A stretch of 64,000 nucleotides of DNA from Hydrolagus colliei (lineage: Eukaryota), in the NCBI GenBank assembly GCA_035084275.1, contig CM068752.1:8308001-8372000 (forward strand), read 5' to 3'. Each line of letters begins with the position of its first letter. Positions within the stretch are counted from its first letter, which is position 1. Below the pieces are notes generated by a model. The model was not told where the DNA came from. It saw only the letters and a program-made list of their open reading frames with translations, and searched no databases. The translations under genes and the position numbers were made by a program. This document shows, one piece after another, positions 1,471-37,403 of the stretch.

Positions 1471-1727
1471 TACGAACAGATACACAGTAAAATGGAGAGG
1501 GAGCTGCGGATCTTTGCAGCAGATTTTGACAAAGGCTGCTAATCGTGTTTGTAGAAGAAATATGGAGTTGTTTCCGAAGTAAACTTGGAGACTGTTTTTC
1601 AAACGTACAGGTATTTACTTACAATTCAGCTCAGCTGTTTAAGGGGGGAAATGGTTGATTCATAACAGTACCAAAGGAATTATTGAACAGTGTGGGTGCT
1701 GCTGAAGGGAAATGCTTTGTGCTGGAA

Positions 1728-4187
1728 ATGGGATTTTATACAATCAATTGCCCGTTAAAACGGCGGCCGTTCTTCTTTGTGACTTTCTGCTGGTGTGTAG
1801 TTTATGGGCAAATTCGTTATTCGATCCCAGAAGAGCTACAATTGGGCGCCTTTGTTGGGAATATCGCTGACGATTTGGGTTTAGCGGTGAAACAGCTGGG
1901 GACGCGCAGTTTCCGTCTTGTGTCTGGCCCTAGGAAACAATATTTAGACGTGAATTTGGAGAATGGGATCCTGTTTGTGAAAGACAAAATTGACAGGGAA
2001 GAGCTGTGTGGACCCAGTGTCACTTGCCTGTTGTCTTTCGAGATGGTTCTTGCCAATCCACTGAATCTGTACCGTGTTGAAGTGGAAGTTATGGATGTAA
2101 ATGACAACGCGCCCAGTTTTCCAAAGAGCCAGTTCCGCCTTGAAATCTCAGAGGTGGCGGCAGAAGGAGCTCGCTTCCCCCTTGAGTGCGCCCACGACCC
2201 CGACGTGGGAAGTAATTCATTGCAGACCTACCGACTGGCTGCAAACGAATATTTCAAATTAAACGTGGAGACCCGCCGAGGGGATGAAAAGTTACCGGTG
2301 CTCGTGTTGGATAAGCCGTTGGATAGAGAGAAACAATCGATTCACAGGTTAACGCTAATTGCGAAAGATGGTGGCGTCCCTGAAAGATCTGGTACAGCTC
2401 AGATAATTATCAATGTGGAGGATGCAAACGACAACATTCCTGTCTTCTCCCAGTCAGTGTATAGGGCCAGTCTGCTGGAAAACGTACCAAAGGGAACACT
2501 AGTAACGAGGCTAAACGCCACTGATTTGGACGATGGGACTAATGGTGAAATAGTATATTCTTTTAGTAGTCACACGTCTCCAAGAGTGAGCGAAATATTT
2601 GAGCTGAATTCAAGAACGGGTGAAATCAGAGTAAAAAAGAAATTGGACTTTGAGGAAAGTAGTGTATTTGAGATCAATGTGCAAGCAAGGGACAGGGGAC
2701 CTTCTGCAACGGCAGTGTACTGTGATGTGTTGGTGGATATTATTGATGTGAATGATAACGCACCTGAGGTGGAACTGACATCCTTGTCCAGTCCAGTTAG
2801 TGAAGATTCCTTGCCCGGGACTGTGGTGGCTCTGATCAGTGTAACCGATAAGGATTCCGGAGAAAATGGTCAGATACACTGTCAAATACCCAATCACCTT
2901 CCATTTGCTTTGGATTCGACCTCAAACAAATACTTCAGGTTGCTTACCCAGGGTCTTTTGGACCGTGAAAACATCTCCTCCTACGACATTACCGTGATGT
3001 GCAGCGACAGGGCAACCCCTCCTCTCACATCCAACAAAACCATTCGCCTGGAGGTTTCAGATATTAACGACAACGCACCACGCTTTCCTCTGTCTTTATA
3101 CAGGGCGCACGTTATGGAGAACAACCTTATCGGAGCTTCTATATTCACAGCCAAGGCTTATGATCCTGATTTCGGCCAGAACGCTCGAATCTCCTACTCT
3201 ATTTTGGGGAGCAGAGTTCAGGGTGAGCCGGTGTCCACTTATGTCCATATTAATTCAGAGAACGGCATCATAACGTCGCAAAGATCATTCGATTACGAGA
3301 AACTCAAAACTTTCCAGATCCAAGTACAAGCAAAGGACAATGGAGTCCCCCAACTCAAGAGCAACATCTCTGTGGATATAACTGTACGTGATCAAAATGA
3401 TAACGCCCCCGTGATTATTTATCCAATACCTGATCACGGATCGATAGTAAAAGAAAGTGTATCGCGGTTGGCAGAGCCAGGCTGCCTTGTTGCCAAGGTA
3501 TCCGCTACCGATGCCGATACGGGTCAAAATGGGCGTCTTTCTTACCAACTTCTCCTCGCTACTGACGCAGGCCTTTTTACAATATCACCCGATACAGGAG
3601 AAATCTGGACAATCCGCGGGATTGTAGACAGAGACGCCAAGAAACAAAGGTTGGTCATTGTAGCCAAGGACAGTGGAATTCCTTCGCTTTCAGCTACAGT
3701 GACCATAGTCTTATCAGTGACGGGTGGCAAAGTGGAAATGCTCTCTGATGTGAGTGACTTGTCGACAGATCCCGGGTTCACACCTGATTTAAGCCTTTAT
3801 TTGGTCATATCTCTGGCCACCATCTCTTCCGTGTTTTTCGTGATTTTGGTCATCCTGGCTGTGAAGGTGCACAGAAACAGAACCGTCATCGGTGACTATT
3901 ACTGCTGTTGCTTTGAAACCAGGCTCTCTCTGAACGGGATCCAGAAAGCCAGCAGAAACGTGCAGATACCCCCGAACTATGTCGAAGTGTTTGGAGGTGA
4001 CCCCCTTTCCCAAAGTTTCCGATACGGATCATATTCAACTTCGGGTTCTAGAAAAGGAGATGTGCTGCATTCCAACATGGGCGGTTCATCCACACAAAGG
4101 AATAACGCCAGAAGTGATGCCATTGGGAGAGAAGGACAACCACGGACAACGTATTCTGCAGACTATACGAACACTGTAAATAGTGAG
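1728..4187 (+). CDS. Clustered protocadherin variable exon V2 (signal peptide, EC1-6, TM, variable cytoplasmic segment)
   Basis: GQIRYSIPEE...GAFVGNIA start of EC1, repeated DxNDNxP/DRE/LDxE cadherin motifs, hydrophobic TM, PPNYVEVFGGDPLSQSFRY; true ATG at 1728; donor GAG|GTGAGG at 4187/4188. Confidence 0.95.
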
Positions 4188-5726
4188 GTGAGGCGCGTCT
4201 GAAAAAACAGCTAGTGCTTTCATTTTAAATGGGAAATTTATGCAGAATTTTATTTAGTTGCTAGAAGTTTCTGGAGTAATTTTAGTAAGTCCTTGTATTC
4301 AACTAATCTGTCCCTCGACCAACTCTCCAAATCGTTCAACCACTCGCCGGTGGGATCGCCTGTTAACCAGTCCCTACCTCTCTCCACTCTCCTTCCCATT
4401 CCTTCACTCTACAGGTTCTCGAAGCTACGAGGAGTTTGGGAGGACCTAGAAGCCATTTGGCCACCTCGCATGTTGACTTCTTCTCTGCTCATTCTGCCTC
4501 TAAGGCGATTATACTCACTTCCTTTGAAAACCTAATCTTTGCGCACCCCAAACAGTGAGTCCTTCACCCTGCCCCCCTCACCTCTCTCCAAAACTTCCCA
4601 GGCAGATCCATTGTAATACCTAGTCTAACATATTTTGGCAATTCTGTGTTACGGATCATTGGTGACTTTAGCGCCAGGAAGTGAATTATTTTTGTCGTTA
4701 TGGTCGAAGGCCTTTCAGGACAGTGTGGCACTCAACTGCACATGAAAGATCCGGTAGCTTTCCCCGTGCCTGTTAGGAATGTAAGTTGCAGTTATGCGTA
4801 AATTTCCAATTGATTTAGTAAGAGGGGAGTCTGTCATTTAAGACAATTGATATAATCGAATAGAATCCTTACGTGTTGTACTTACTTCGTGATTCTGTGA
4901 CTCACCAGGTTGTTCCAGGAAAATTGTTCACCTGATCAAAGGGGTTCATATAATAGACACGACTAGTTTTAAACAACATATCGAGTGAGATGCAGATTTA
5001 GGACAATATGTCTTTACGAAAAGTTTATAGATTAAGTTGGCAGCAACACTTACTGAAATGCGCTATACAAGTGTAATTTGTTGTTGGTGGAACAATAGTA
5101 TTGATGTACAGGGACCCAGTAAACGGTACTTGTCTAACTAAGATTATTCTATCTGATGAAGTTTGAGGATAATTATATAATCTAAAAATGTATTCATACA
5201 ATAGGAGGAGTGACCAAATAATAACGATGCTTTGGCTAAGGTTTTCAAGTGTGGTCCCTCAGAGCAGAGCAAAGGTGTTCCACTTGCCTCCCTTAAACAT
5301 ATCAGTTTATGGACATCGAAAGATGAAGAGGTGAGGGGGCTCACTGCAAATTCGAATATTGTATTATCTAATCAAACTGCAATGCCCAAGCAACTCGGCT
5401 ACAATGCACCACAAAACAACTATTGTAACTGATTTCAAGAGGCAATTGGGAGGATTTGTGCTTTTGTAGTACAGTACATGGATTGAAGAATACACAGTGG
5501 AAGCGTCCAAGTGATATTTACATCAGTGAAAACAATGGCTTTGTTGGACATAGGGACCTTTTCCTTTCGTCACCTACGTGATTCTTAGACTAACTACGAT
5601 AACAATGTTTGGGAGGAATTCGTGGGTAACAAATATCCTAAAGGTGAAAGGTGGTGTTGCTAATATTTTGAATGTAGATCGATCAATGTAAAACAGCCCC
5701 GAATGAAGATTTGCGGTGACATCCTC

Positions 5727-5835
5727 GCTTTAAGTAATGCTCCTCGAGGTGATTGGCTGATGGTGAGTTTGCCTGCTTGGACCAATGAGAAACCGTGATG
5801 TGGCTGGAGATCCTGACTGCACCTCCCCACCATCA
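5727..5835 (+). promoter_or_regulatory. V3 promoter cassette
   Basis: GCTTTAAG 5727, ATTGG 5752, CCAAT 5782. Confidence 0.75.
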
Positions 5836-6083
5836 CATACTAGCAGACACAGAGCAAAACCGGGACATTGAAGGGCGCACACTGTGTTTTGTGCAATCTC
5901 TGGCATCATAGGAAGATTCTGAAGAAAATATACATCGCCATTCACCACGAACAGGTACTTATCTACACATTAGCTGCTGTATTCGGTCAGAAGATTAATT
6001 GGTAAAGAGCATAATTCCAAGGAACTATTATTGAACGGCGGGTTGTGTGACGCTGCCACATTGGGAATGATTTTTTGCTGGAA

Positions 6084-8564
6084 ATGGAACGTAACCGAAC
6101 AAATTGGTTGATAAAATGGATTCCATTGTGCTGTATATTGTGCCTCCCGCGGCGCCTAGTTTCTGGCGAGATTCGCTATTCGATTCCCGAAGAGCTGCAG
6201 ACGGGAGCCTTTGTTGGGAATATCGCGGGCGATCTGGGTTTGGACGTGAAAGAGCTGTCGGCTCGCGGTTTCAGGATCGTGCCTGGCCCCAGCAAGCAGT
6301 ACTTGGGGGTGAATTTAGACAACGGAGTTCTGTTTGTGAAAGAAAAAATCGACAGGGAACAACTGTGTGGGGATTCCAGCCTGACTTGTGTGCTGTCTTT
6401 CGAAACAATGATCGAGAATCCTCTCAATCTGTATCGCGTTGAAGTGGAAATACTGGATGTGAATGACAATGCTCCCAGTTTCTCCAAGAGCCAGATCCGC
6501 CTGGAAATCTCAGAGTTGGCTGCCCCAGGAACACGCTTGGCTCTGGAGCGCGCCCACGACCCTGATGTAGGGACCAACTCCCTTCAAACCTACCAGCTCG
6601 GCCCGAACGACCATTTTATTCTGGTTGTGCAAACGCGCGGCTCCGATGGTAAGCTGCCAATGTTAGTGTTGGAAAGGCCGCTGGACAGAGAGAAGCAAAC
6701 GGGTTACAGGTTGGAGCTAATTGCCAAGGATGGAGGGATTCCCGAAAGATCCGGTACCGTTCAGATCATCATAACTGTACAGGACGCCAACGATAACGCG
6801 CCTGTTTTTCAACAATCACTTTACAGTGTCAGCGTATTCGAAAACACCGTCAAGGGGACACTGGTCCTTCAGCTAAACGCCACTGACTTGGACGATGGCT
6901 CCAACGGAGAGATAGTTTACTTATTCAGTAGCCACACGTCAGCTCGAGTGCGTGAACTCTTCTCTCTCAATGCCCAAACCGGTGAAATCAGACTGAAAGG
7001 AGCGTTGGATTATGAAGAAAAGAATGCGTTTGAACTCAATGTGCAAGCTGCGGATAAGGGTCCAAACTCGATACCGGGCTACTGTGATGTGTTGGTGCAG
7101 GTAACTGATGTGAATGATAACGCGCCAGAGATAACACTGACCTCTTTCTACAGCCCAATTGGTGAAGATGCTTTGCCTGGGACGGTGGTGGCTTTGATCA
7201 GCGCAACAGACAAAGATTCGGGCGAATACGGACGCGTGCAATGCCAGCTCGCCAACAACCTGCCGTTTCAACTCGTTTCCTCCCTGGAAAATTATTACAA
7301 GTTGCTGACGCAGCACTCACTGAACCGCGAAAATATCTCCGGCTACGACATCGCTGTTGTTTGCAGCGATGGAGGGAACCCGCCTCTCACATCCACTCAA
7401 AGCATCCGGGTGGAGGTGTCTGATGTCAATGATAACGCACCAGGATTCCCGCAAGCTTCCTACACGGCCCGTGTGCCGGAAAACAACGCGATCGGTTCAT
7501 CTATTTTCTCTGTGACTGCCTACGATCCCGATTCAAGCCTGAACGCCCAACTCACCTACACTATCCTGGAGAGTCGGGTTCAAGGAGAGTCGGTCAGCTC
7601 ATTGGTCTCCATGAATTCGGCCACTGGGACCATCGTGGCTCAACGATCGTTCGATTACGAGCAGCTCAAAAACTTTGAAATTCGGGTTCGAGCACTGGAC
7701 AATGGAGTCCCATCTCTGTCCAGTAACGTGTCTGTGAATGTAGTCATCCTGGACCAGAACGACAACTCCCCAGTCATCGTGTCTCCATTACCAGAGTTTG
7801 GCTCAACGGTGAAAGAGACTGTATCTCGGTTGGCAGAGCCAGGCTACCTGGTGGCCAAGGTTTCGGCCATTGACGCTGACACGGGGCAGAATGGGCGTCT
7901 GTCTTACCAGATTCTCCAGGCCACTGACCCGGGGCTTTTCACCATCTCCCCTGACACAGGAGAAATCTGGACCATCCGCAGTGTTAGGGACAGAGATGCC
8001 AAAAAGCAAAGGCTGGTCATTGTGGTGAAGGACAATGGAAGTCCCTCACTCTCAGCCACAGTGACCATCATGTTGTCGGTGGTGGGTGGCGATACAGAGA
8101 TGCTCTCTGACAGGAAAAGCTTATCTGTACCTGCTGAGTTCGGTTCACCATTGAGCCAGTACTTGGTCATTGCTTTGGGTTCAATCTCTTCCATTTTTCT
8201 AGTGGTTTTAATTATTCTCGCTGTTCAGGTTCACCTAAACAGAACTGCTTATGGTGCTTACAGTTGTGCTCTGTCTCCCTGCTGCTGCTTGGAAACGAGA
8301 CACTCTCTGAATGGGATTCAGAAAGCCAGCAGAAACGTTCAGATACCCCCGAACTATGTTGAAGTGTTTGGTGGCGACCCACTTTCCCAGAGCTTTCGTT
8401 ATGGATCGTGTTCTACTTCAGGTTCGAGCAAAGGAGATTTCCGGTTTTCCCACACTGGCCGAGCGTCCACACACGTGAATGACATCAGGAGGGAAGTTAT
8501 TGGGTTGGAGGGAAACCCACGGGTGTCTCACTCTGCAAATTATAGGAGCAATGAAAACGGTGAG
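6084..8564 (+). CDS. Clustered protocadherin variable exon V3
   Basis: Same domain layout as V2; ATG 6084; donor GAG|GTGAGG at 8564/8565. Confidence 0.95.
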
Positions 8565-9371
8565 GTGAGGCTCATTTGTTAAGCGAAACCTTGACGAATT
8601 TCTTTTAAATCCACACATCACCACGGAGAGTTTGCCGAAAGCAAGAAAGCGCATACCATGGCCGCTTCTTATTGGTTGCTTGATATAATATAAATGTTTG
8701 TGTCCAGGAAAACACAATTAGTTTTTTTTTGCTACAATATTGGTTGAAGCATTGTGATAGCTCCAAATCCTAACTCTTTATGGACTGTATCAATCTCCTT
8801 GATGGTGTAGTTATGAATTCGTATTTTGATCCAGCAACTATCAATGGAAATAAATATGCTGTACTTTAATCAACAAATGTACCTCGATTAAGCATCACAT
8901 ACATATATATTTAAAAATATCAAAATTGATAAACATTTCAACACAAAGCAGTAAAGGAGATATGAAATGGAAAATCTAGGGTTTGATTTGGATCACCACA
9001 AAGTATCGATACAGAGAGAAGTAGGAATGGCGGTAAAGATTTATGGAGGATATCGATTAGAGTGATATGGAGAGTATGCATTGTACGTATAGATCAAGGA
9101 TAGTTTTGAAAACAAAATCTATTTCCCAAGTTATGGTAACTTACGAGAAAAGAGGTATGTTGCTCACGTTATAAATGTTGTCACTCTGCTTTCTTGTGGT
9201 CAGTATGCTATATGTTTCTTTACAGGACTAGCAAAAGCAAAACAACATTTACCACTTTTGTCTCAAACTATTAGTTATTCAGCGATATGGTTTGGATTAA
9301 TAGTGTGGTTACCTGTAGCATTGCGCAGCAATACTGCGCTGGTTCAGGTTGAATTTGAGGAGTACATTCTT

Positions 9372-9492: not shown

Positions 9493-9749
9493 AGACTCTC
9501 AGACAGACAGACTAACATTGGACAGCGAGCTGCGTAACGCTCTATCAGGACTCCTATGTGCAGCCATTGTGGTGTTCAATGGACAAAAAGGAAGTGTTTT
9601 TTGCAGCGATAGTCTGCGGTCTTGAACAATAACAGGTATTTCTCTACGTTCTAGTCCTTCATGTTAACAATGATATATACAGAACCTTTGCCGGGGGAAT
9701 GTTACAGCTGTGAGTCGTGCTGAAGCAATTGATATGTTTTATGCTGGAC

Positions 9750-12812: not shown

Positions 12813-13062
12813 AGACTCTCAGACACAGAGTAACAGTGAACAGCGAGCTGCGTATCGGTGTGTTAGGGCTTCTGTTTGCATAAATAGTCGTGTTTTTAAC
12901 GAATTAAGATCATTCTCAGCGAAAGGCCTACGATTCTAGATGAGCTCAGGTTTTTGTAAAAGTATTTTATTGGAAAACATTATGATATATAAAGCAGTAA
13001 CCAGTGGAATACTGGAGCGGCGATGAGGCGTGCTGAGAGAAACAGAATGCGTTATATTGGAG

Positions 13063-15537
13063 ATGGCTCATAGCGGAATCATTTGTCTGATAAAATGGCG
13101 AGTATTATTCTTTTTATGCATCTCTTGGCATTTAGCTTGTGGACAGATTCGCTATTCAATTCCTGAGGAATTGCAACCCGGTGCCTTTGTTGGGAATATC
13201 GTACAGGATTTGGGTTTAAACGTGAAGGACTTGTCTGCCCGTAGATTCCGTCTTGTTTCTGGTCCCAAGAAGCAGTATTTGGAGGTGAACTTGGACAATG
13301 GTGTTTTAGGTATAAAGGACAAAATTGACAGGGAAGAGATTTGTGGACAGAGCCTGACGTGTGTGTTGTCTTTGGAGGGTGTGGTTGAAAACCCACCGAA
13401 TGTGTATCATATCGAAGTCGAGATTCTGGATGTGAATGACAATGCTCCCAGCTTCCCGAAGAAACAGTTTCGGATTGAAATCCCAGAGCTGGCTACTGTT
13501 GGGGCTCGCTTCCCTCTAGAGCGGGCTCAAGACCCAGACGTGGGAAGCAATGCCCTGCAGACCTACCAACTTATTGTGAATGAATATTTCAGCTTAAATG
13601 TACTGGCGGGTAGTGGGGATGGGAAACAACCTATGTTGGTGCTCGAAAAGTCCCTGGATCGAGAGAAAGTACCATCTCACAGGTTAGTGTTGATAGCTAG
13701 AGACGGTGGGGTCCCACAGAGATCAGGCACGGCTGAAATAATAATCCTGGTGCAGGATGCAAATGATAACGAACCTGTTTTCTCTCAGCCAGTTTATCAT
13801 GTCAATCTTTTGGAAAATACACCGAAAGGTAATGTAGTGATTAAATTAAACGCTACTGATCTGGATGATGGTCCCAACGGAAAGATAGTTTACTCTTTAA
13901 GTGATCACGCCTCAGATAGAGTGCGTAAACTATTTGCTGTGGATTCTGAAACTGGTGAGACCAGAGTTAAAGGAAAATTAGACTTTGAGGAAAATGAAGC
14001 ATTTGAGGTTAATGTAAAAGCGATGGACAAAGGACCGAACGCAATTTCGGTTTACTGTGATATTCTGGTGACCATTATTGATGTGAATGATAATCCACCT
14101 GAGGTGACCCTGACCTCTCTATTCAGCCCTGTGGGTGAGGACGCGCTGCCCGGGACTGTGGTGGCTGTGATCAGTGCAGCAGACAGAGATTCGGGAGCCA
14201 ATGGACAAATACAGTGTCAACTTAAAAACAAGCTTCCCTTCAAACTGGATTCCACCTTAAAGAACTACTACAGGCTGGTTACACGGGAGCCGCTGGACAG
14301 GGAAAATGCCTCTGTGTACGACATCACCATTGTGTGCAGTGACAGAGGCTCCCCTCCTCTCACAGCCAACAAACACATCCGGTTGGAGGTTTCCGATATC
14401 AATGACAACCCACCCAGGTTTGGGCAGCCTTTATACACAGCCCACCTGATAGAGAATAACCTGGTGGGATCTTCCATTTACTCAGTGACAGCTTATGATC
14501 CGGATTCAAACCAGAACTCTCTGCTCAGCTACTCTATCCTGGAGAGTCAGGTTGAGGGGGAGTCAGTTTCTGGTTATGTTTCCATTAACTCAGACACCGG
14601 CGTCATTTTCTCTCAACGATCTTTTGACTACGAGCAACTCAAACAGTTTCAGATACTGGTTCAAGCTCAAGACCATGGTGTCCCAGCACTTTCCAGCAAC
14701 GTGTCTGTGGATGTCACCATCCTGGACCAGAATGACAACGCCCCAGTGATCGTGTCCCCATTGGCCGAGTTTGGCTCAAGAGTGACAGAGACTATGTCGG
14801 GATTCGCTGAGTCAGGTTACCTGGTCGCCAAAGTAACAGCCACTGACGCTGATTCCGGCCAGAATGCTCGTCTCGATTATCAACTTCTCCAGGCCACCGA
14901 CCCTGGCCTGTTTACCATCTCCCCCGGCACAGGAGACATCTGGACCATCCGCAGCGTCCAGGACAGAGATGTTAGGAAGCAAAGGTTGGTCATCGTGGTG
15001 AAGGACAATGGAATCCCGTCACTATCAGCCACAATGACCATCATCGTATCGATTGTGGGCAGTGATACAGAGATGATCTATGATAGGAAAGACTTATCTG
15101 AACCTAATGAATTTGACTCACCTGTCAGCCTGTACTTGGTCATTTCTCTGGCAATAGTCTCATCGATTTTCCTGGTGGTGTTAATTATCCTCATTATTAA
15201 GATCCACAGACAAAGAACTGGGTTTGGTGACCCTGGTTGTTCGCTGTGTGCTTGTTGTTGTTTCTACCCGAGACATTCCCTGGATGGGATTCAGAAAGCC
15301 AGTAGAAATCTCCAGATTCCTCCCAACTATGTTGAAGTGTTTGGTGGTGATCCGCTTTCCCAGAGTTTCCGTTATGGGTCTTACTCAACTTCAGGTTCTT
15401 CCAAAGGAGGATTTCTGTTTTCGAACACGCACAGTACATCCACTGCGAGGAATAAAGCCAGGAGTGAACCAATTGGGAACGAAGGAAACCAACTGACATC
15501 GAAATCTGAGAGATATAGGAATTGTGTAAGCCATGAG
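13063..15537 (+). CDS. Clustered protocadherin variable exon V5
   Basis: Same layout; ATG 13063; donor GAG|GTGAGA at 15537/15538. Confidence 0.95.
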
Positions 15538-16288: not shown

Positions 16289-16536
16289 GACTCTCACACA
16301 CAGTGTAACCCTGAACAACGAGCTGCGTAACGGTGTGTTTAAGCTTCGGTTTCCACAACCGCTGGTGTTTTGGAATGAATTAGGAACATTCTCAGCAAAA
16401 AATCTACGATTCTGTTGAAGCGCAGGTATTAACGCAAGTGTTTGTTGTGGAAACAATGGTGCATAAAGCAGTAATCAGTGGATCATTTGGACGGCGATGA
16501 GGAAGGCTGTGAGAATCGGGATGCTTTATATTGGAG

Positions 16537-19609: not shown

Positions 19610-19865
19610 GACTCTCACACACAGTGTAACACTGAACAGCGAGCTGCGTAATGCTGTTTTGTGGATTCGCTTTGTGGATTTATTGTGGTTCATCACGAAT
19701 TAGGCAGATGTTCCATTAAGAATCTGGGATGCTTAAAAACACAGGTATTTGTCTACATCGTTGTAGTTATAATCTTTAAAGACAATGCGTAGATAACTCA
19801 CATCGAGGGGCATATTTGAGCGGCGCTGTGTTGTGCTGAAAGAGTCGGAATGCTTTCCATTGGAA

Positions 19866-23030: not shown

Positions 23031-23293
23031 TCAGTCCATCAGATACCAGTGAACATTGGGTAGCGAGCTGCGTAAGGGAACGCTGGGATTATTTGTGCAA
23101 CGTTTTGTGATATTTACAGGAGCGGGATAATGATTCCAGGAGAAAACCTCAGCGAATTGTAATAAAAACATACAGGTATTTGTGTGTTACTTAGCGTGTC
23201 TGCTGGTAAAAATGACTCGTAACTAAATGTATTCGAGGGTTGATTCCACGGCGCCGTGTTGTTCTGAGGCTGTTGAAATGCTTTGTGCTGGAT

Positions 23294-25768
23294 ATGGGAT
23301 ATTATCAGATATGTTGGTTGATAAAATGGCATCTCCTGTACTGTATATTATACTCCTGGAGTCTGGTTTCCGGAGAGATTCGTTACTCGGTCCCTGAAGA
23401 GCTGCAACTGGGCGCCTTTGTTGGGAATATCGCGGACGATTTGGGGTTAGACGTGAAAGAGCTGTCGGCTCGCAGTTTCCGTATCGTGTCCGGTGCCAGC
23501 AAACAGTATCTGGACGTCAATCTGGCCAATGGGCATATTTTCGTGAAGGAAAAAATCGACAGAGAAGAACTTTGTGGGTCGAAATCCTCATGTGCTTTGT
23601 CTTTAGAAGCCGTGCTTGAAAACCCTCCCAACGTGTATCACATCGATGTGGAGGTTCTGGACGTGAACGACAATGTTCCCAGTTTCCCAAAGAGCCAATT
23701 CCGTTTGGAAATCTCTGAAGTGGCTGTGCCTGGGGCTCGTTTCCCTCTGGAGAGCGCACAAGATCCCGATGTAGGAACGAACGCCCTGCAAACCTACCAA
23801 CTCGCGGCAAACGAGTATTTCAGCTTGAACGTGGAAACCCGCAGCGGGGACGTGAAACTCCCGGTGTTAGTGTTGGAAAGCCGGCTGGACAGAGAAAACC
23901 AACCGACTCACAGGTTGGTGTTGTCCGCCAAGGACGGGGGAGTCCCTCAGAGATCCAGTACAGCTCAGATACTGATCACTGTGCAAGACGCCAACGACAA
24001 TGTGCCAGTATTCCCCCAGTCGGAGTACAAGGTCAGGCTCTTGGAAAATGTCCCTCAAGGGACAGTGGTAACGAAACTAAATGCCACGGACGCGGACGAA
24101 GGATACAACGGAGAGGTAGTGTACTCGTTTGCGAGTCACACTTCTGCAAGAATGCGTCAGTTATTCGCCTTGAATTCGAAAACCGGTGAAATAAGGGTGA
24201 AAGGACGCTTGGACCGTGAAGAAAACATTCCGTTTGAGATTAATGTTCAGGCAACTGATAAGGGTCAAAACGCTATCCCCACCTACTGCCATGTGTTAGT
24301 GGATGTTGTTGATGTGAATGATAACGCACCTGAGGTGACCCTGACCTCTCTGTTCAGCCCAGTCAGTGAAGCTTCACGACCCGGCACATTGGTAGCTCTG
24401 ATAGGTGCAACCGACAGAGACTCAGGAGCAAATGGAAAGGTGGACTGTCAAATTCTCAACCAGATTCCTTTCAAACTGGATTCATCCTCCAAGAACTATT
24501 ACAGGTTAGTCACAAGCAGACGACTGGATCGCGAGGACACCTCGACATACGACATTACTGTTGCCTGCAGTGACAGAGGCTCCCCTCCCCTCACAGCCAA
24601 GAAACACATCCGGGTGGAGGTGTCTGATATCAATGACAGCGCGCCACGGTTTGCCCAGCCTTCATACACAGCCCACGTGATGGAGAACAACGTTATTGGG
24701 AGTTCGATCTACTCAGTCACAGCTCTGGATCCGGACGCAAATGAGAACTCTCGACTGACCTACTGTATCCTGGAGAGTCAAGTTCAGAACACGTCAGTGT
24801 TCAACTACGTCTCCATTAATCCGCAGAATGGCGATCTTTTATCTCAGAAATCGTTTGACTTTGAACAACTCAAAAGCTTCCAGATCCTCGTTCAGGCACA
24901 GGACCAAGGAGAGCCGGCGCTGTCCAGTAACGTGTCTGTGGATATCACCATTCTGGATCAGAACGACAACTCCCCAGTCATCGTGGCTCCATTACCTGAG
25001 TTTGGCTCAACGGTGACAGAGACTGTATCTCGGTTGGCAGAGCCAGGCTACCTGGTGGCCAAGGTCTCGGCCATTGACGCTGACACGGGGCAGAATGGGC
25101 GTCTGTCTTACCAGATTCTCCAGGCCACTGACCCTGGGCTTTTCACCATCTCCCCTGACACAGGAGAAATCTGGACCATCCGCAGTGTTAGGGACAGAGA
25201 TGCCAAGAAGCAAAGGCTGGTCATTGTGGTGAATGACAATGGAAGTCCCTCACTCTCAGCCACAGTGACCATCATGTTATCAGTGGTGGGTGGAGAGGCG
25301 GAAATGCTCTCTGAAGTTAATGTTTTACCAGGAGATCCCTGGGTCACTTCTGATATCAGTATTTACCTGGTGATAGGCTTGGGAACAATCTCCACCATTT
25401 TTCTTGTTGTTTTAATCGTCCTGGCTTTTAAAGTCCACAACAACCGGAACGGTTTTGGAACCAATAGCTGTTTGCTGGGTACATGTTGTTGTTTGGAATC
25501 AAGGAGTTCACTGAATGGCATTCAAAGAACCAGTAGAAATATTCAGATTCCTCCCAACTATGTTGAAGTGTTTGGGGGTGATCCGCTTTCCCAGAGTTTC
25601 CGCTATGGGTCGTATTCAACTTCCGGTTCTTCCAAAGGAGGATTCCAATTTTCCACCACACACAGTTCATCCACCCATAGGAATAAAGCCAGGAGTGAAC
25701 CAATTGGGAGCGATGGAAATCAACTGGGATCGAATTCTGCAAATTATAGGAACTGCGTAAATAACGAG
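23294..25768 (+). CDS. Clustered protocadherin variable exon V8
   Basis: Same layout; ATG 23294; donor GAG|GTGAGA at 25768/25769. Confidence 0.95.
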
Positions 25769-26500: not shown

Positions 26501-26764
26501 ATCAGTCCATCAGATACCAGTGAACATTGGGTAGCGAGCTGCGTAAGGGAACGCTGGGATTATTTGTGCAACGTTTTGTGATATTTACAGGAGCGGGATA
26601 ATGATTCCAGGAGAAAACCTCAGCGAATTGTAATAAAAACATACAGGTATTTGTGTGTTACTTAGCGTGTCGGCTGGTAAAAATGACTCGTAAATAAATG
26701 TATTCGAGGGTTGATTCCACGGCGCCGTGTTGTTCTGAGGCAGTTGAAATGCTTTGTGCTGGAT

Positions 26765-29239
26765 ATGGGATATTATCAGATATGTTGGTTGATAAAATCG
26801 CATCTTGTGTACTGTATATTATACTCCTGGAGTCTGGTTTCCGGGGAGATTCGTTACTCGGTCCCTGAAGAGCTGCAACTGGGCGCCTTTGTTGGGAATA
26901 TCGCGGACGATTTGGGGTTAGACGTGAAAGAGCTGTCGGCTCGCAGTTTCCGTATCGTGTCTGGTGCCAGCAAACAGTATCTGGACGTCAATCTGGCCAA
27001 TGGGCATGTTTTCGTGAAGGCAAAAATCGACAGAGAAGAACTTTGTGGGTCGAGAACCTCATGCGCTTTGTCCTTAGAAGCAGTGCTTGAAAACCCGCCC
27101 AACGTGTTCCATGTTGAAGTGGAAATACAAGACGTGAACGATAATTCTCCCCGTTTCGCAGAGAGCCCGATCCGCCTTGAAATCTCAGAGGTCGCTGTGC
27201 CTGGATCTCGCTTCGCTCTTGAGAATGCCCAGGATCCAGACGTGGGCACCAATTCCCTTCAAACCTACCAGCTTGATGCTAATGATTACTTTTCCCTTCA
27301 TGTTGACACCCTGAGTGGAGAGGGGAAGTTACCGGTGCTGGTGCTGGAAAAGCCTCTGGATAGAGAGAAACAATCAACCCACAGTTTAGTCCTAACGGCC
27401 ACAGACGGAGGTGTCCCGGTCAGGATCGGCACAGCTCAGGTCACAATATCGGTGCAGGATGCAAACGACAACGCGCCCACTTTCCTGCAGTCGGTTTACA
27501 GAGTCAGTCAGTTGGAAAACGCGCCCAAGGGGACCTTGGTGATTAAACTAAACGCCACCGACTTGGACGACGGCCCCAACGGAGAGATAGTTTATTCTTT
27601 CAGCAGTCACACATCTGCTCGTGTGCGTGAATTATTTGCGGTGAATTCCAGAACCGGCGAAATCAAAGTGAAAGGACGATTAGACTATGAAGAGAACACT
27701 GCGTTTAAGATCAATGTTCAGGCAACTGATAAGGGGCCCTCTGCTATCCACACCTACTGCCATGTGTTAGTGGATGTTGTTGATGTAAATGATAACGCAC
27801 CTGAGGTGACCCTGACCTCTCTGTTCAGCCCAGTCAGTGAAGCTTCACGACCCGGCACATTGGTAGCTCTGATAGGTGCAACCGACAGAGACTCAGGAGC
27901 AAATGGAAAGGTGGACTGTCAAATTCTCAACCAGATTCCTTTCAAACTGGATTCATCCTCCAAGAACTATTACAGGTTAGTCACAAGCAGACGACTGGAT
28001 CGCGAGGACACCTCGACATACGACATTACTGTTGCCTGCAGTGACAGAGGCTCCCCTCCCCTCACAGGCAAGAAACACATCCGGGTGGAGGTGTCTGATA
28101 TCAATGACAGCGCGCCACGGTTTGCCCAGCCTTCATACACAGCCCACGTGATGGAGAACAGCGTTATTGGGAGTTCGATCTACTCAGTCACAGCTCTGGA
28201 TCCGGACGCAAATGAGAACTCTCGACTGACCTACTCTATCCTGGAGAGTCAAGTTCAGAACACGTCAGTGTTCAACTACGTCTCCATTAACCCGCAGAAT
28301 GGCGATCTTTTATCTCAGAAATCGTTTGACTTTGAACAACTCAAAAGCTTCCAGATCCTCGTTCAGGCACAGGACCAAGGAGAGCCGGCGTTGTCCAGTA
28401 ACGTGTCTGTGGATATCACCATTCTGGATCAGAACGACAACTCCCCAGTGATCGTGTCTCCATTACCAGAGTTTGGCTCAACGGTGACAGAGACTGTATC
28501 TCGGTTGGCAGAGCCAGGCTACCTGGTGGCCAAGGTCTCGGCCATTGACGCTGACACGGGGCAGAATGGGCGTCTGTCTTACCAAATTCTCCAGGCCACT
28601 GACCCTGGGCTTTTCACCATCTCCCCTGACACAGGAGAAATCTGGACCATCCGCAGTGTTAGGGACAGAGATGCCAAGAAGCAAAGGCTGGTCATTGTGG
28701 TGAAGGACAATGGAAGTCCCTCACTCTCAGCCACAGTAACCATCATGTTATCAGTGGTGGGTGGAGAGGCGGAAATGCTCTCTGAAGTCAATGTTTTACC
28801 AGGAGATCCCTGGGTCACTTCTGATATCAGTATTTACCTGGTGATAGGCCTGGGAACAATCTCCACCATTTTTCTTGTGGTTTTAATCGTCCTGGCTTTT
28901 AAAGTCCACAACAAACGGAACGGTTTTGGAACCAATAGCTGTTTGCTGGGTACATGTTGTTGTTTGGAATCAAGCAGTTCACTGAATGGCATTCAAAGAA
29001 CCAGTAGAAATATTCAGATTCCTCCCAACTATGTTGAAGTGTTTGGGGGTGATCCGCTTTCCCAGAGTTTCCGCTATGGGTCATATTCAACTTCCGGTTC
29101 TTCCAAAGGAGGTTTCCAATTTTCCAACACACACAGTTCATCCACCCACAGGAATAAAGCCAGGAGTGAACCAATTGGGAGCGATGGAAATCAACTGGGA
29201 TCGAATTCTGCAAATTATAGGAACTGCGTAAATAACGAG
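26765..29239 (+). CDS. Clustered protocadherin variable exon V9 (5' half V10-like, 3' half V8-like)
   Basis: Same layout; ATG 26765; donor GAG|GTGAGA at 29239/29240. Confidence 0.95.
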
Positions 29240-29871: not shown

Positions 29872-29985
29872 GCTTTAAGACATGTCCTGTGCCGTGATTG
29901 GTTGAGTACGGGGCCACCAATGAGAAGCTGAGATGTGAACAGAGATCTTGACCGCCCCCTTCCCCTTCCCCTCCACCATCACCAT
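29872..29985 (+). promoter_or_regulatory. V10 promoter cassette (20-nt box spacing)
   Basis: GCTTTAAG 29872, ATTGG 29897, CCAAT 29917. Confidence 0.75.
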
Positions 29986-30247
29986 CAGTCCATCAGATAC
30001 CAGTGAACATTGGGTAGCGAGCTGCGTAAACGAACGCTGGGATTATTTGTGCAACGTTTTGTGATATCTACAGAAACGGGATAATGATTCCAGGAAAAAA
30101 GCTCAGCGAATTGTAATAAAAACATACAGGTATTTGTGTGTTACTTAGCGTGTCTGCTGGTGAAAATGACTCGTAACTAAATGTATTCCAGGGTTGATTC
30201 CCCGGCGCCGTGTTGTTCTGAGGCTGTTGAAATGCTTTGTGCTGGAT

Positions 30248-32722
30248 ATGGGATATTATCAGATATGTTGGTTTATAAAATGGCATCTCGTGTACTGTAT
30301 ATTATACTCCTGGAGTCTGGTTTCCGGAGAGATTCGTTACTCGGTCCCTGAAGAGCTGCAACTGGGCGCCTTTGTTGGGAATATCGCGGACGATTTGGGG
30401 TTAGACGTGAAAGAGCTGTCGGCTCGCAGTTTTCGTATCGTGTCCGGTGCCAGCAAACAGTATCTGGACGTCAATCTGGCCAATGGGCATGTTTTCGTGA
30501 AGGCAAAAATCAACAGAGAAGAACTTTGTGGGTCGAGAACCTCATGCGCTTTGTCCTTAGAAGCTGTGCTTGAAAACCCTCCCAACGTGTTCCATGTTGA
30601 AGTGGAAATACAAGACGTGAACGATAATTCTCCCCGTTTCGCAGAGAGCCCGATCCGCCTTGAAATCTCAGAGGTCGCTGTGCCTGGATCTCGCTTCGCT
30701 CTTGAGAAAGCCCAAGATCCAGACGTGGGCACCAATTCCCTTCAAACCTACCAGCTTGATGCAAATGATTACTTTTCCCTTCACGTTGACACCCTGAGTG
30801 GAGAGGGGAAGTTACCGGTGCTGGTGCTGGAAAAGCCTCTGGATAGAGAGAAACAATCAACCCACAGTTTGGTGCTAACGGCCACAGACGGAGGTGTCCC
30901 GGTCAGGACCGGCACAGCTCAGGTCACAATATCGGTGCAGGATGCAAACGACAACGCGCCCACTTTCCTGCAGTCGGTTTACAGAGTCAGTCAGTTGGAA
31001 AACGCGCCCAAGGGGACCTTGGTGATCAAACTAAACGCCACCGACTTGGACGACGGCCCCAACGGAGAGATAGTTTATTCTTTCAGCAGTCACACATCTG
31101 CTCGTGTGCGTGAATTATTTGCGGTGAATACCAGAACCGGCGAAATCAAAGTGAAAGGACGATTAGACTATGAAGAGAACACTGCGTTTGAGATCAATGT
31201 TCAGGCAACTGATAAGGGGCCCTCTGCTATCCACACCTACTGCCATGTGTTAGTGGATGTTGTTGATGTAAATGATAACGCACCTGAGGTGACACTGACC
31301 TCTCTGTTCAGCCCAGTCAGTGAAGCTTCACGACCCGGCACATTGGTAGCTCTGATAGGTGCAACCGACAGAGACTCAGGAGCAAATGGAAAGGTGGACT
31401 GTCAAATCCTCAACCAGATTCCTTTCAAACTGGATTCATCCTCCAAGCACTATTACAGGTTAATCACAAGCAGACGACTGGATCGCGAGGACACCTCGAC
31501 ATACGACATTACTGTGGCCTGCAGTGACAGAGGCTCCCCTCCCCTCACAGCCAAGAAACACATCCGGGTGGAGGTGTCTGATATCAATGACAGCGCGCCA
31601 AGGTTTGCCCAGCCTTCATACACAGCCCACGTGATGGAGAACAACGTTATTGGGAGTTCGATCTACACAGTCACAGCTCTGGATCCAGACGCAAATGAGA
31701 ACTCTCGACTGACCTACTCTATCCTGGAGAGTCAAGTTCAAAACACGTCAGTGTTCAACTACGTCTCCATTAACCCGCAGAATGGCGATCTTTTATCTCA
31801 GAAATCGTTTGACTTTGAACAACTCAAAAACTTCCAGATCCTCGTTCAGGCACAGGACCAAGGAGAGGCGGCGCTGTCCAGTAACGTGTCTGTGGATATC
31901 ACCATTCTGGATCAGAACGACAACTCCCCAGTCATCGTGTCTCCATTACCAGAGTTTGGCTCAACGGTGAAAGAGACTGTATCTCGGTTGGCAGAGCCAG
32001 GCTACCTGGTGGCCAAGGTCTCGGCCATTGACGCTGACACGGGGCAGAATGGGCGTCTGTCTTACCAGATTCTCCAGGCCACTGACCCTGGGCTTTTCAC
32101 CATCTCCCCTGACAGAGGAGAAATCTGGACCATCCGCAGTGTTAGGGACAGAGATGCCAAGAAGCAAAGGCTGGTCATTGTGGTGAAGGACAATGGAAGT
32201 CCCTCACTCTCAGCCACAGTGACCATCATGTTATCAGTGGTGGGTGGAGAGGCGGAAATGCTCTCTGAAGTCAATGTTTTACCAGGAGATCCCTGGGTCA
32301 CTTCTGATATCAGTATTTACCTGGTGATAGGCTTGGGATCAATCTCCACCATTTTCCTCGTGATTTTAATCGTCCTGGCTTTTAAAGTCCACAACAACAG
32401 GAACGGTTTTGGAACCAATAGCTGTTTGCTGGGCACATGTTGTTATTTGGATTCGAGTAGTTCCCTGAATGGAATTCAAAGAGCCAGTAGAAATATTCAG
32501 ATTCCTCCCAACTATGTTGAAGTGTTTGGGGGTGATCCACTGTCTCAAAGTTTTCGCTATGGGACATGCTCAACGTCTGGTTCGAGCAAGAGAGACTTCA
32601 TGTTTTCCAACGAGGGCAGGTCATCTGCACACAGGAATAACCCCAGGAATCACTCTGTTGGTAAAGAAGGAAACTCACTGGCGTTTAACGCCACACCTTG
32701 TGCTATCAGTGTAAATACTGAG
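30248..32722 (+). CDS. Clustered protocadherin variable exon V10
   Basis: Same layout; ATG 30248; donor GAG|GTGAGA at 32722/32723. Confidence 0.95.
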
Positions 32723-33018
32723 GTGAGACGCCTCGTACGTTTGGTTTTATAGAATATTCTAGCATTTGGTGATGCCTTTTTGCCCAACCAGCCTTTGGTT
32801 GTTAGTAGTTTCTCCTCTGTTGGAGCTAATTATTCCCATCCATGTCTTTCCCGTAATCTTGTGTGTTGTTCCTCTGTTGTCGTGTCGAGTTAGAGATCAG
32901 GAATGATTTGGAAAGAATATGCAATGGTGGCTCCGGCTCTAGCAGCTGAATGACCTAGTTCCTATGTTTTTACATAGCTATGTTTGTATAGGTAACAAAA
33001 GCCAATGGAGAACTCAAC

Positions 33019-33029
33019 TGTGTGTGTGT

Positions 33030-33059
<30 letters not shown>
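33019..33059. repeat. (TG)6 microsatellite followed by ~30-nt poly-G run
   Basis: Seen directly. Confidence 0.95.
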
Positions 33060-33060
<1 letters not shown>

Positions 33061-33444
33061 AAGAAAGAATCAAACTTATCAGTATTTTAGGATTTTGTCT
33101 ATTCATATATTAATCACAAGTGCGGGGCTGTATGATTCACAGTGGTTATATACTGTATGTTGTCAGGAAGAAAGTTAATTAGCATAGGCTCCTTTAATAA
33201 AGGGACGAATAGGAGAATTGGCGAGATGGGTTCTGCTTATTCGTACGAATATCACATGTTCCATCTGCAGTACGATGTGTTTAACAGGCGGACGCGAAAG
33301 GTGTTAGTAAGTGAACTCGCGATCACAATGGTCGATTGGTGGTAAAGAGGTTATCGAACAAGTTTTTAATTGCGCCACAGTAAATGTATATTTATTTTTA
33401 CGCAGTTTTTTTTAAAAAGTTTGAATTTTTACGAAGACATCACA

Positions 33445-33566
33445 GCTTTAAGAAACGTTCAGCTTCCTGATTGGTAGGACGGGAGTGTGGCTCCGTTGAC
33501 CAATGAGAAGCTGTAATGTGACGAGAGATCCTGCCTGTCTCCTTCCCTCCCCCATTCCACCATCAC
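33445..33566 (+). promoter_or_regulatory. V11 promoter cassette
   Basis: GCTTTAAG 33445, ATTGG 33470, CCAAT 33500. Confidence 0.75.
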
Positions 33567-33827
33567 AGATCATCAGAGACAGACTCAATGTGAATGGCGA
33601 GCTGCCTTAGCGTTATATTAGCTTGCGCTGCCCACCGATTTACCGCAACCATTGCTACAAAATCGTAGGTATCTTGCGTGTGTGTGTGGGGGTGTGTGTG
33701 TGTGTGCTACTGTTCATCAGATATTCTTCTCCATAACAAAAATGTCTGAAAAGTCACTTTATTCCTAAGAAAATATTCAACGGTACCGGTGCCGTGATCA
33801 AGCGACTGAAATGCTTTGTGCTGTAAA

Positions 33828-36281
33828 ATGGGATGGTATAGGGTAAGCTGCTGGTCGCTCAAATGGCAATTGTTTTACTCAATCCTCTCTTGCTGGAGCC
33901 CAGTTCACGGGCAGATTCGTTACTCGGTCCCCGAAGAATTGCAACCCGGCGCCTTTGTGGGGAATATCGCGCAGGATTTGGGGTTGGAAGCCAGAGAGTT
34001 GGCGGCTCGCAGATTCCGCATCGTGTCGGGTCCCAGGAAGCAATATCTGGACGTGAATGTGGACAACGGGATGTTATTCGTGAAGGAAAAAATCGACAGG
34101 GAAGAGCTGTGCGGGGCCAGCCTGGCGTGTGTGCTGCCTCTGGAGGGTGTGGTTGAAAACCCGGTGAACGTATATCATGTGGAGGTGGAAATAGTGGATG
34201 TGAATGATAATGCGCCCAGCTTCCCAAAGAGCCAGTTCCGCCTTGAAATCTCAGAGGTGGCCTCGCCAGGGGCTCGCTTCGCCCTGGAATGTGCTCACGA
34301 CCCGGACATTGGAACCAATTCTCTGCAGACGTATGACCTGCTGGGAGACGAATATTTCAGCCTCAATATCGACCCACTGAGCGGGGATGGGAAGCTACCC
34401 GTATTGGTCTTGGAAAAGCCCCTGGACAGAGAAACGCTGCGGATCCACAGGTTAGTGCTGGTGGCCAGGGATGGTGGGGTCCCAGAGAGATCAGGCACCG
34501 CACAAGTGAACATCATAGTACAGGATGCAAACGACAACGCGCCGGTTTTCTCAGAGTCAGTCTATAGGGTTAGTCTGTCGGAAAACGTACCCAAAGGGAC
34601 TCCTGTGGTCAAAGTTAATGCCACCGACCTGGATGTGGGTCCTAACGGTGAGATCGTTTACTCCTTTGGCAGCCACACGTCGGGGAGAGTGCGTGAGCTG
34701 TTTGCGCTGAACGCCAGGACTGGTGAGATCAACGTTAAAGGGGAATTGGACTATGAGGAATATGGTGTGTATGAGATTAACGTGGAAGCAAAGGACAAGG
34801 GGTCTAATGCAATCCCCGCTTACTGTCATGTGTTGGTGGATGTTGTGGATGTCAATGATAACCCGCCTGAAGTCACCCTGACCTCCTTATTCAGCCCAGT
34901 GAATGAGGACGCGAGGCCAGGGACTGTAGTGGCTCTGATCAGCGCAACAGATAGGGACTCGGGGGATAATGGACAGGTTCAATGCCGGATAGCCAACAGT
35001 TATTACTTCAGGCTGGACTCATCCCTGAAGAACTATTACAGGTTGTTGACCCAGAGGCCGCTGGACCGTGAAAATATCTCCCAGCACGACTTGACTGTCG
35101 TGTGCAAGGACAACGGCTCCCCTTCTCTCTCAACCAACGCTACCATCGGGGTGGAGGTGTCTGATGTGAATGACAACTCCCCGATTTTCCTGCAGCCTCT
35201 GTACACGGCGCGTGTGATGGAGAATATCGTTATCGGGGCTTCCATTTTCTCGGTGACAGCTCGCGATCCGGATTCACACCGGAACGCTCAACTCTCTTAC
35301 TCGCTCCGGGGCGGCCAAGTGGAGGGGCAGTCGGTTTCGAACTACGTCTCTGTCGACTCGGCTTCTGGGGATATTTTCTCCCGGAGATCCTTCGACTACG
35401 AGCAGCTTAAAAGCTTTCAGATCCAAGTTGAGGTTCAGGACAGTGGGGAGCCGCCGCTCAGCAGCAACGCTTCAGTGGATATAATCATCCTGGACCAGAA
35501 TGACAACTCCCCAGTCATCGTGTCTCCATTACCAGAGTTTGGCTCAACAGTGACAGAGACTGTATCTCGGTTGGCAGAGCCAGGCTGCCTGGTGGCCAAG
35601 GTCTCAGCCACTGACGCTGACACGGGGCAGAATGGGCGTCTGTCTTACCAGATTCTCCAGGCCACTGACCCTGGGCTTTTCACCATCTCCCCTGACACGG
35701 GAGAAATCTGGACCATCCGCAGTGTTAGGGACAGAGATGCCAACAAGCAAAGGCTGGTCATTGTGGTGAAGGACAATGGATCACCATCGCTGTCAGCCAC
35801 CATGACCATCGTGTTATCAATAGTGGGCGGTGATGCAGAAACTCTCTCGGATGGGAACAAGTTATCAGAACGTCCCGAATCCGTTCCCCCTTTGAGCCTT
35901 TACTTAGTCATATCTTTGGGTGCAATCTCTTCCATTTTCCTGGTGGTGTTAGTCATCCTGGCAGTGATGGTTCACCGAAACAGAACTGGTTTGGCCGCCC
36001 GGAGTTGCTGTTCTCTGGCTGCTTGCTGTGGCTTGGAAAGGAGGCATTCGCTGAATGGGATCCAGAAAGCCAGCAGAAACCTCCAGATCCCCCCCAACTA
36101 TGTGGAAGTCTTTGGGGGCGACCCTCTCTCTCAAAGTTATCGCTACGGGTCGTGTTCGACCTCTGGCTCAACCAAAGAGGATTTCGGGTATGCCAAGGCG
36201 CACAGGAACGGAACGCTTCGGATGGAGGAACCCGCCACAATGTTAAACTGTGAACATTTTAGGAAATCTATAAAGAGTGAG
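33828..36281 (+). CDS. Clustered protocadherin variable exon V11
   Basis: Same layout; ATG 33828; donor GAG|GTGAGG at 36281/36282. The ORF-track extension to 36548 is intronic read-through. Confidence 0.93.
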
Positions 36282-36974
36282 GTGAGGCGCTGGATTGAGA
36301 GGTCAGATGGGGGGAACACACGTTGGGGGCAGGTATCTGTGGATAGATACCTGTCCACCGACACTCAATCTAGTCTGTGGAGGAGAGAGATATACCATTT
36401 TTTAGTACTGTATATTAATAGATATTTAAAGCGTCCACGTATCACTTTCACTTCTTCTCTTCGCAGTGTCAACCTGTTGTTGATTTATTTTTACAAAAAA
36501 AGTTGTGAATTGAGATTTCTCTCGAGTTTAATGCCCTCCTGGTGGTAGTAACTGCAATTGCAAATCATGCTCGCACTGATTTATTTGCACTGCCCTCCAA
36601 TGCTGCAAATAAGCTGCATCTGATAGTGTACAACAGTGAACTCTAAAATTCGTGTCCATTACTTTATCCACCCCCCCCCCATCCCACCATCGAGCTTCTT
36701 AATGTAGAATAGGTGTGATATACAGAAAATGTTAGGATCAAATTAAGGCCATTCAGCCCATCGAGCCTGTCCTGGAAGCTTACTGGATCAGAGCAGATCG
36801 TTTAATCCCATTTCACCTAAATGATAGTGATGAATAAGAATAATAACCGTTGGCAAAACAAGCCAGGTAGCTTAGCATTGAGTAGTGTCTGAAAAATCAA
36901 CGGGATAAAAGGGTATTTTTTGATTGAGCAACTTTAAACGCGAATGCCACGCCGAGCTTCACTGGGACGTGCTC

Positions 36975-37097
36975 GCTTTAAGTGGGAGCTGGGTTAGCGA
37001 TTGGTTGAACTTGAGCCTGTCTCCTTCCACCTATCGGGAGCCGAGTTGTGCCTGAGAGATCCACAGTGCCCTCTCCCTTTCTCCAGTCACCATCGCA
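36975..37097 (+). promoter_or_regulatory. V12 promoter cassette (second box mutated to CCTAT; most divergent copy)
   Basis: GCTTTAAG 36975, ATTGG 37000, CCTAT 37030, GAGATCC retained. Confidence 0.7.
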
Positions 37098-37403
37098 CAA
37101 TCAGATGCTGAGTGAAGACGTACATACACACATAGCCAGCCAGCTGCACAAGGCTATGGTTAGGCTGTGTGTGTGTGTGTGTATAAAGCTCCACCATGGT
37201 GATTGTAGAGGGATGGGGGGGTGGACGGAGAGGATTTATTTTCACACACAAACAAGTAATTTATTTGGAGCGCATCTGAGCTCTTTTTTTTCCTGGTTGA
37301 AATGGAATGTGAACAACTTTATTCCCTGGGATAATTGCTGAACGGAGTCGCAGTGTCACGTTGAAACACTTATTTTTTGTGGAGGCGATGCTTTGAGCTA
37401 GAG

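Follow-up and report, generated by a model that had tools for sequence, protein, structure and literature searches.

Organization of the Pcdh-nu locus

The 64-kb stretch of contig CM068752.1 presented above (hereafter the window) contains the 3′ part of a clustered protocadherin (Pcdh) nu subcluster, comprising 11 variable exons and 4 constant exons, and a short sequence resembling a 5′ splice donor recurs in the leader upstream of every one of these variable exons. The region examined consisted of the window together with 350 kb upstream and 20 kb downstream. The 11 open reading frames (ORFs) of the window encode 824–906 aa, and seven further nu genes lie upstream, one of them frameshifted. 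As is characteristic of nu genes, they form a tandem series of large variable exons with a signal peptide, cadherin repeats, a transmembrane segment and a 3′ donor. Along the whole locus, the variable exons comprise, in order, one delta-like, one epsilon-like, 29 mu and 18 nu exons. The delta, epsilon and mu labels were given by gene order, following the passages cited from PMC2764143, while nu1–nu18 denote order along the locus and not elephant-shark names.

From its sequence, the locus is identified as the nu subcluster of a chimaera-like fish, because the last constant exon is 97% identical to that of Callorhinchus milii Pcdh-nu and the variable exons match C. milii nu8, nu9, nu13, nu15 and nu17 at 78–90% identity (first 330 aa). 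The two subclusters are alike in these respects, although C. milii represents a related and not an identical genome. The exons of the window are listed below (numbered from its first letter; a slash marks the splice boundary).

1728–39884 (+): eleven tandem variable exons, each closing at a phase-0 donor, GAG/GTGAG
45892–45950 (+): constant exon 1, 59 nt, with a strong acceptor, an out-of-frame AUG at +20 and a donor, CAG/GTAACT, without +5G
47684–47961 (+): constant exon 2, 278 nt, with QRD/QRE repeats
58168–58278 (+): constant exon 3, a 111-nt cassette with two in-frame Mets
62097–62311 (+): constant exon 4, coding part up to the stop, 97% identical to C. milii Pcdh-nu

The GT of the end-of-exon donors falls at 4188, 8565, 12225, 15538, 19012, 22341, 25769, 29240, 32723, 36282 and 39885, and all 17 donors located among the 18 nu genes read AG/GTGAG.

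A donor-like site in the nu leaders

The copies of the leader site in the window are as follows.

1608–1616 (+): CAG/GTATTT, ATG at 1728; ortholog of C. milii nu9 (90% identity over the first 330 aa)
5952–5960 (+): CAG/GTACTT, ATG at 6084; read from the sequence
9633–9641 (+): CAG/GTATTT, ATG at 9741 or 9750; read from the sequence
12947–12955 (+): CAG/GTTTTT, ATG at 13063; the weakest copy (2.4 bits)
16423–16431 (+): CAG/GTATTA, ATG at 16537; read from the sequence
19742–19750 (+): CAG/GTATTT, ATG at 19866; read from the sequence
23173–23181 (+): CAG/GTATTT, ATG at 23294; promoter near-identical to those of the next two genes
26644–26652 (+): CAG/GTATTT, ATG at 26765; in the near-identical promoter trio
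30127–30135 (+): CAG/GTATTT, ATG at 30248; in the near-identical promoter trio
33666–33674 (+): TAG/GTATCT, ATG at 33828; a (GT)n microsatellite follows directly
37253–37261 (+): CAA/GTAATT, ATG at 37404; −1G lost, +4A; ortholog of C. milii nu17 (84%)

All eleven GT positions and 9-mers quoted in the first-pass annotation are present in the sequence. That annotation had assigned the site to every variable gene, which applies to the window (11/11) and, more broadly, to 14 of the 18 nu genes, but not to the mu subcluster or to the delta and epsilon genes. At the aligned place, the three nearest upstream nu genes carry CAG/GTTTGA, AAG/GTAACT and CAG/GTACTA, and the four most upstream ones lack the site. 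It is not conserved in the mu subcluster, where AGGTA occurs at scattered positions in 6/29 leaders against 3.2 expected (p 0.09), or in 6/22 once near-identical leaders are collapsed (p 0.04), and AGGT[AG] was not found in the delta and epsilon leaders examined. The GT lies 105–159 nt upstream of the first in-frame ATG in the 11 window genes; the upper end agrees with the range of 111–159 nt proposed earlier, while the lower end is set by the first of two ATGs in the third gene (at 105 and 114 nt). The sites at 33669 and 37256 are farther from the ATG than the other copies, and insertions shift the site in two genes.

Recurrence of the motif exceeds chance expectation. Within leaders, taken to begin 260 nt ahead of the first cadherin Tyr codon and to end at the ATG, and searched with six patterns over five gene sets, AGGTA is present in 9/11 window leaders compared with 1.3 in dinucleotide shuffles (maximum of 5 in 1000 shuffles), and in 7/9 after collapsing the near-identical trio at 23176, 26647 and 30130; none occurs on the reverse strand of the window leaders. 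An unanchored alignment of 10 of the 14 site-bearing leaders (excluding two duplicates and two insertion-bearing genes) yielded best blocks of 47/50 over five columns and 55/60 over six.

That the site has no function, and is an ancestral 9-mer maintained through descent, a low local mutation rate or gene conversion between paralogous promoters, is in our judgement decidedly unlikely, although several observations suit it: the 14 genes form one duplicate clade with three near-identical promoters, the motif was picked after looking, and weak conservation also reaches positions −19 to −8. Simulations along the same tree with indels and realignment (150 runs each, gene conversion not included) bear on both sides, as the observed block scores were reached in 0/150 runs at a uniform rate but in 3/150 (five columns) and 2/150 (six columns) under gamma rates of shape 2, the fitted shape being 2.96. 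Neutral persistence has to contend with a mean pairwise leader identity of 45%, with a tree length of 4.8 substitutions per site in these ten leaders and with survival of the site despite the insertions that displace it. The leaders, previously described as otherwise diverged, are so on average, but they share further conserved blocks, namely GAGCTGC and a block with an out-of-frame ATG preceding the start codon. Judged from these comparisons, the leader site is real and clade-specific and appears to be under constraint.

The substitution pattern of the 14 sites (−3C in 12, −2A in 14, −1G in 13, GT in 14, +3A in 12, +4T in 10, +5G in 1 and +6T in 11) resembles that of a donor, as first proposed, with the qualification that the U6-facing side is poor, +5G being missing in 13/14. 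A donor-like reading would fit the pattern better than a site for a DNA-binding factor, because GT and −2A are invariant and no copy reads CAGGTG. AG at −2/−1, GT, +3A and no requirement for +5G are sequence features shared with the AG//GUNNN (U5 loop 1) donors. This donor class is described in the sections cited from PMC11732430, which also note a tendency for m6A:U pairing at +4 to be unfavourable. Of the 14 copies, three have gained +4A or +5G (AAG/GTAACT, CAA/GTAATT and CAG/GTTTGA), and all of these deviate elsewhere too. By comparison, all 17 end-of-exon donors found carry +4A and +5G. Matches to the U1 complement (11 nt) number 6–9 in the leader sites (n = 14) and 6.5–7.5 in the end-of-exon donors (n = 17), and T content rises across the site from 0.26 to 0.37 (12 leaders).

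Promoter context and neighbouring features

The promoters upstream of these leaders share a common architecture, for which the first window gene serves as the example.

1349–1470 (+): promoter block GCTTTAAG – ATTGG – CCAAT – GAGATCC – C-rich run, recurring before each variable exon

Both mu and nu promoters contain the series GCTTTAAG – ATTGG – CCAAT – GATCY – C-rich run, and in 28/29 mu promoters a TGTCGCTGTCTAC-like core lies between ATTGG and CCAAT. We take this core to be the CGCT-box conserved sequence element (CSE), whose mammalian consensus it appears to match. GCTTTAAG itself was considered as the CGCT element and rejected, since the mu core sits between the two other boxes. In mammals the CGCT-box CSE binds CTCF, according to the passages cited from PMC7811963 and PMC4978886. 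A matrix built from the 28 mu cores and scanned over 434 kb on both strands (>11 bits) detected the core in 0/14 site-bearing nu promoters, which retain ATTGG, CCAAT and their spacing. A degenerate core of 14.1 bits is present in the nu2 promoter, and none was found in nu1 and nu3–nu18; nu1, nu3 and nu4 have neither the core nor the leader site. Loss of the CSE and gain of the motif constitute one evolutionary contrast, between the mu and nu clades, and not many, and the association of CSE with donor in a Fisher test across 47 genes (p 0.008) was set aside as confounded with subcluster. CpG content did not separate mu from nu leaders, and an IUPAC consensus for CTCF was uninformative, with 2–5 mismatches even at true CSEs.

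The mu promoters thus resemble the CSE promoters of mammals and Xenopus, whereas the 14 site-bearing nu promoters differ from them in keeping ATTGG and CCAAT without the core. That site-bearing nu promoters lack the CGCT element found in 28/29 mu promoters is new here and is the most useful addition of this analysis; the literature searched contained no report of the leader motif or of CSE loss in nu genes, and the primary elephant-shark paper (Yu 2008), which lay outside that search, may mention either. Promoters without a CSE have precedents: in mammals only four clustered Pcdh genes lack it, as given in the part of PMC7811963 cited, and in Xenopus it is missing from 22 gamma2 genes, which have a different motif (PMC4978886, passages cited).

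The distance from CCAAT to the leader GT is 169–226 nt. Transcription usually starts at a characteristic spacing from the CCAAT box, and the leader GT would therefore lie ~100–150 nt into the transcript.

Two further recurrent elements surround the start codon, the first exemplified by the first window gene.

1712–1730 (+): conserved block ATGCTTTGTGCTGGAAATG, with an out-of-frame AUG 16–17 nt before the start codon

The out-of-frame AUG of this block is found in all 14 site-bearing genes and in nu4, opening frames of 2–65 codons, and a peptide, ECVVLEM, upstream of a sawfish start suggests that the block is conserved in elasmobranchs. Some 27–33 nt after each nu ATG (e.g. 13090–13100), AAAATGG(C) recurs, encoding Lys-Trp codons and supplying an out-of-frame AUG in strong context; the sequence also resembles a YY1 site.

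Additional features lie among the exons. Between the last variable exon and constant exon 1, the following segment was recovered.

40363–40425 (+): 63-nt in-frame remnant or mini-exon, TAG/...GAG/GT, encoding ITPNYVEVFSPDPFSQALGYE and homologous to the tail of the variable exons

A variable exon since lost may have left it behind, or it may be a cassette exon. A similar short tail is seen in sawfish and white-shark variable exons whose last residues before constant exon 1 are YE; homology of the 63-nt piece ends at the AG, and its acceptor is weak (3.9 bits). DNA-type read contigs, which cross introns and are joined only among repeats, confirm that it is genomic. The interval also contains a 73-nt imperfect palindrome at 40630–40702 (89% self-complementary), and the first constant intron contains a high-copy repeat with reverse-transcriptase-like ORF remnants at 41600–42760. 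In constant exon 2, the QRDA repeat is expanded and exceeds that of C. milii by 20 residues. The constant exon 3 cassette occurs in some elasmobranch (shark) isoforms and is missing from the retrieved C. milii nu proteins; shark isoform pairs differ additionally by 14 aa. Upstream of the window, nu3 (window-relative −21193 to −18768) is frameshifted and has no match to the AG/GTGAG donor, and mu12 (window-relative −148553) is truncated. In Scyliorhinus torazame models, a variable exon donor is joined to the Q/IRYS codon boundary of the next variable exon, which may be an annotation artefact.

Candidate roles of the leader site

A donor requires a partner, and the earlier statement that no conserved strong acceptor separates the site from the ATG agrees with our scan, in which the best local candidates scored −4.4 to 6.0 bits at unrelated positions, compared with 13.3 for constant exon 1. 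An intron confined to the 5′ untranslated leader was rejected accordingly, as the best branch point, pyrimidine-tract and YAG sites of the 14 leaders are weak and unrelated in position. Acceptors in the signal-peptide region (YAG/YTT, CAG/ATT) are likewise weak and can be put down to Leu and Gln/Glu codons. Within the variable exons, acceptor-like sites recur 1740 and 1780 nt in (each in 11/12), where the coding sequence of the paralogs is near-identical.

The site could itself be an acceptor or recursive (ratchet) site, YAG/GT, letting transcripts from upstream promoters step over downstream variable exons. YAG/GT is indeed present in 12/14 copies, and each lies within the long intron of every upstream gene. 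We nevertheless regard such a role as most improbable: the site lacks a polypyrimidine tract (pyrimidine fraction 0.35–0.59), acceptor scores are −0.6 to 7.4 bits with 12/13 below 4, and the copy at 37256 has no AG.

Splicing from the leader to constant exon 1 had been suggested to skip the ectodomain and yield an intracellular-only product initiated in constant exon 3. The in-frame Mets invoked for this are present, both in the cassette at 58168–58278, but they lie downstream of the out-of-frame AUG at +20 of constant exon 1. Joined to that exon, only 3/14 leaders offer an in-frame AUG with a protein (240–278 aa); the others have short upstream frames followed by the +20 AUG, whose frame runs for 72 codons and stops ~98 nt before the next junction, a configuration for nonsense-mediated decay (NMD). 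The predicted product would mostly be an out-of-frame, NMD-type RNA, and an intracellular-only protein is unlikely, because the out-of-frame AUG precedes the exon 3 Mets and an in-frame leader AUG is rare.

A regulated form of the same event, in which the leader donor joins 45892 in competition with the end-of-exon donor and so decides between receptor and sterile RNA, would place a post-transcriptional gate in promoters without a CTCF-type element. The leader site would be the cap-proximal donor. Choice of variable exon reportedly follows a cap-proximal rule (Tasic 2002). The acceptor of constant exon 1 is strong, and a real donor of the locus, CAG/GTAACT, also does without +5G. Alternative donor pairs tend toward opposite classes in the sections cited from PMC11732430. 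Gene models provide a partial parallel, since 22 of 23 protein matches of 30–564 aa are bird Pcdh-gamma RefSeq models, many of 125–250 aa and many with a short first piece joined to constant exon 1. These resemble the predicted event in that a short 5′ piece plus constant exon 1 gives a constant-region-only protein; they differ in being automatic models from another cluster and lineage, and in supplying the in-frame AUG absent from 11/14 leaders here.

Searches of 90%-clustered protein sets, which non-coding models would escape, returned no constant-region-only nu isoform at 38–123 aa and no chondrichthyan short-first-exon model among the 23 short matches or among 11 matches of 939–1821 aa (searched at 124–2000 aa). 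The sole chondrichthyan-type short match comes from a short assembly contig, opens with constant exon 1 and is uninformative as to its first exon. Given also that the product would be an out-of-frame 72-codon ORF for most genes and that no sign of regulation was seen, a regulated sterile splice appears unlikely. A more elaborate version is very doubtful: the subcluster would have dropped its CTCF-type element, every nu promoter would fire, and a U5-class leader donor and a U6-class end-of-exon donor would compete, under METTL16- or LUC7-type control, to set in each cell whether the output is receptor mRNA or a sterile NMD substrate.

The reading that we favour, tentatively and as a possibility short of a probability, is that the leader site serves as a cap-proximal dock for the U1 small nuclear ribonucleoprotein on nascent RNA and seldom completes splicing. 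It is preferred because a good U1 match is combined with a poor U6 match, no local partner and a junk product if spliced; a U1-binding element, one of the alternatives in the first-pass annotation, is further favoured over a regulated switch because +5G occurs in only 1/14 leader sites, against AG/GTGAG in 17/17 end-of-exon donors. Transcription would start ~100–150 nt upstream of the site, around the C-rich run that follows the CCAAT box. Base pairing with U1 would span −3 to +3 and +6 to +8, and docked U1 could sustain elongation across a first exon of 2.5 kb with its real donor remote from the cap. The poor match at +4/+5 would make hand-over to U6 inefficient, so that the downstream GAG/GTGAG donor wins, and any leakage into a splice with constant exon 1 would produce the out-of-frame, NMD-type RNA described above.

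Promoter-proximal unspliced 5′ splice sites studied in the context of U1 versus Restrictor and of telescripting offer a likeness, namely a sense donor-like site early in the presumed transcript with no partner acceptor. In the mammalian reporters described in the part of PMC12211998 cited, a sense 5′ splice site close to the start confers protection from Restrictor even when it is not spliced, and a weak site is better than none. Those cases are real first-intron donors or inserts in mammalian-cell reporters, whereas here a weak site precedes a 2.5-kb first exon with a stronger donor of its own.

Several points weigh against a U1 dock. In the same passages of PMC12211998, protection scales with strength, a weak site protecting less than a strong one, and splicing adds to it. 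First exons are just as long in the 29 mu genes, which conserve no such site. Donor scores, which like the acceptor scores come from frequency matrices and not from MaxEntScan, are 2.4–9.1 bits for the 12 leader sites scored, as opposed to 9.6–9.7 for six variable-exon donors and 6.4 for the constant-exon-2 donor; two copies have +3T, and CAG/GTTTTT marks the lower limit of this range. The acceptor matrix, for its part, gives two real constant-exon acceptors just 6.6 and 6.4 bits. Over 16 nu leaders, the best donor does not score above shuffles (6.61 versus 6.07, p 0.16), as is also the case for mu leaders (p 0.53); on this crude matrix, a generic U1 site would therefore need no special conservation.

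A fixed, sequence-specific site in leaders of unexceptional donor strength would suit a protein. The element could act in DNA just downstream of the start, as a Z-box (CAGGTA) bound by a ZEB-type repressor or as the target of some other factor, and time the firing of the CGCT-less nu promoters, an explanation that we consider rather unlikely. For the ZEB-type alternative raised in the first-pass annotation, the exact hexamer is present in 9/14 sites, and the ZEB1 Z-box CAGGTA is functional in the miR-200c promoter and conserved to zebrafish (PMC2396950, as excerpted). The CSE-less Xenopus gamma2 genes, compared by description only, have their own 13-bp motif ~200 bp upstream of the ATG (PMC4978886, passages cited). 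However, all five deviating copies break CAGGTA and none touches the GT, and CAGGTG, also bound by ZEB in the cited text of PMC2396950, occurs in 0/18 nu leaders. A second ZEB-type site lies within 120 nt in only 2/14 genes. ZEB proteins bind in a two-site mode.

If the site proves to be a ZEB box or neutral, it amounts to a lineage-specific promoter detail. Isoform choice in clustered Pcdh genes is explained by CTCF bound to the CSE, and their large variable exon separates the cap from the first donor by ~2.6 kb. A 14-gene clade without the CSE and with a donor-like site near the start would be a compact test of CSE-less Pcdh control, and the same clade would test whether selection keeps an unspliced U1 site before a giant first exon.

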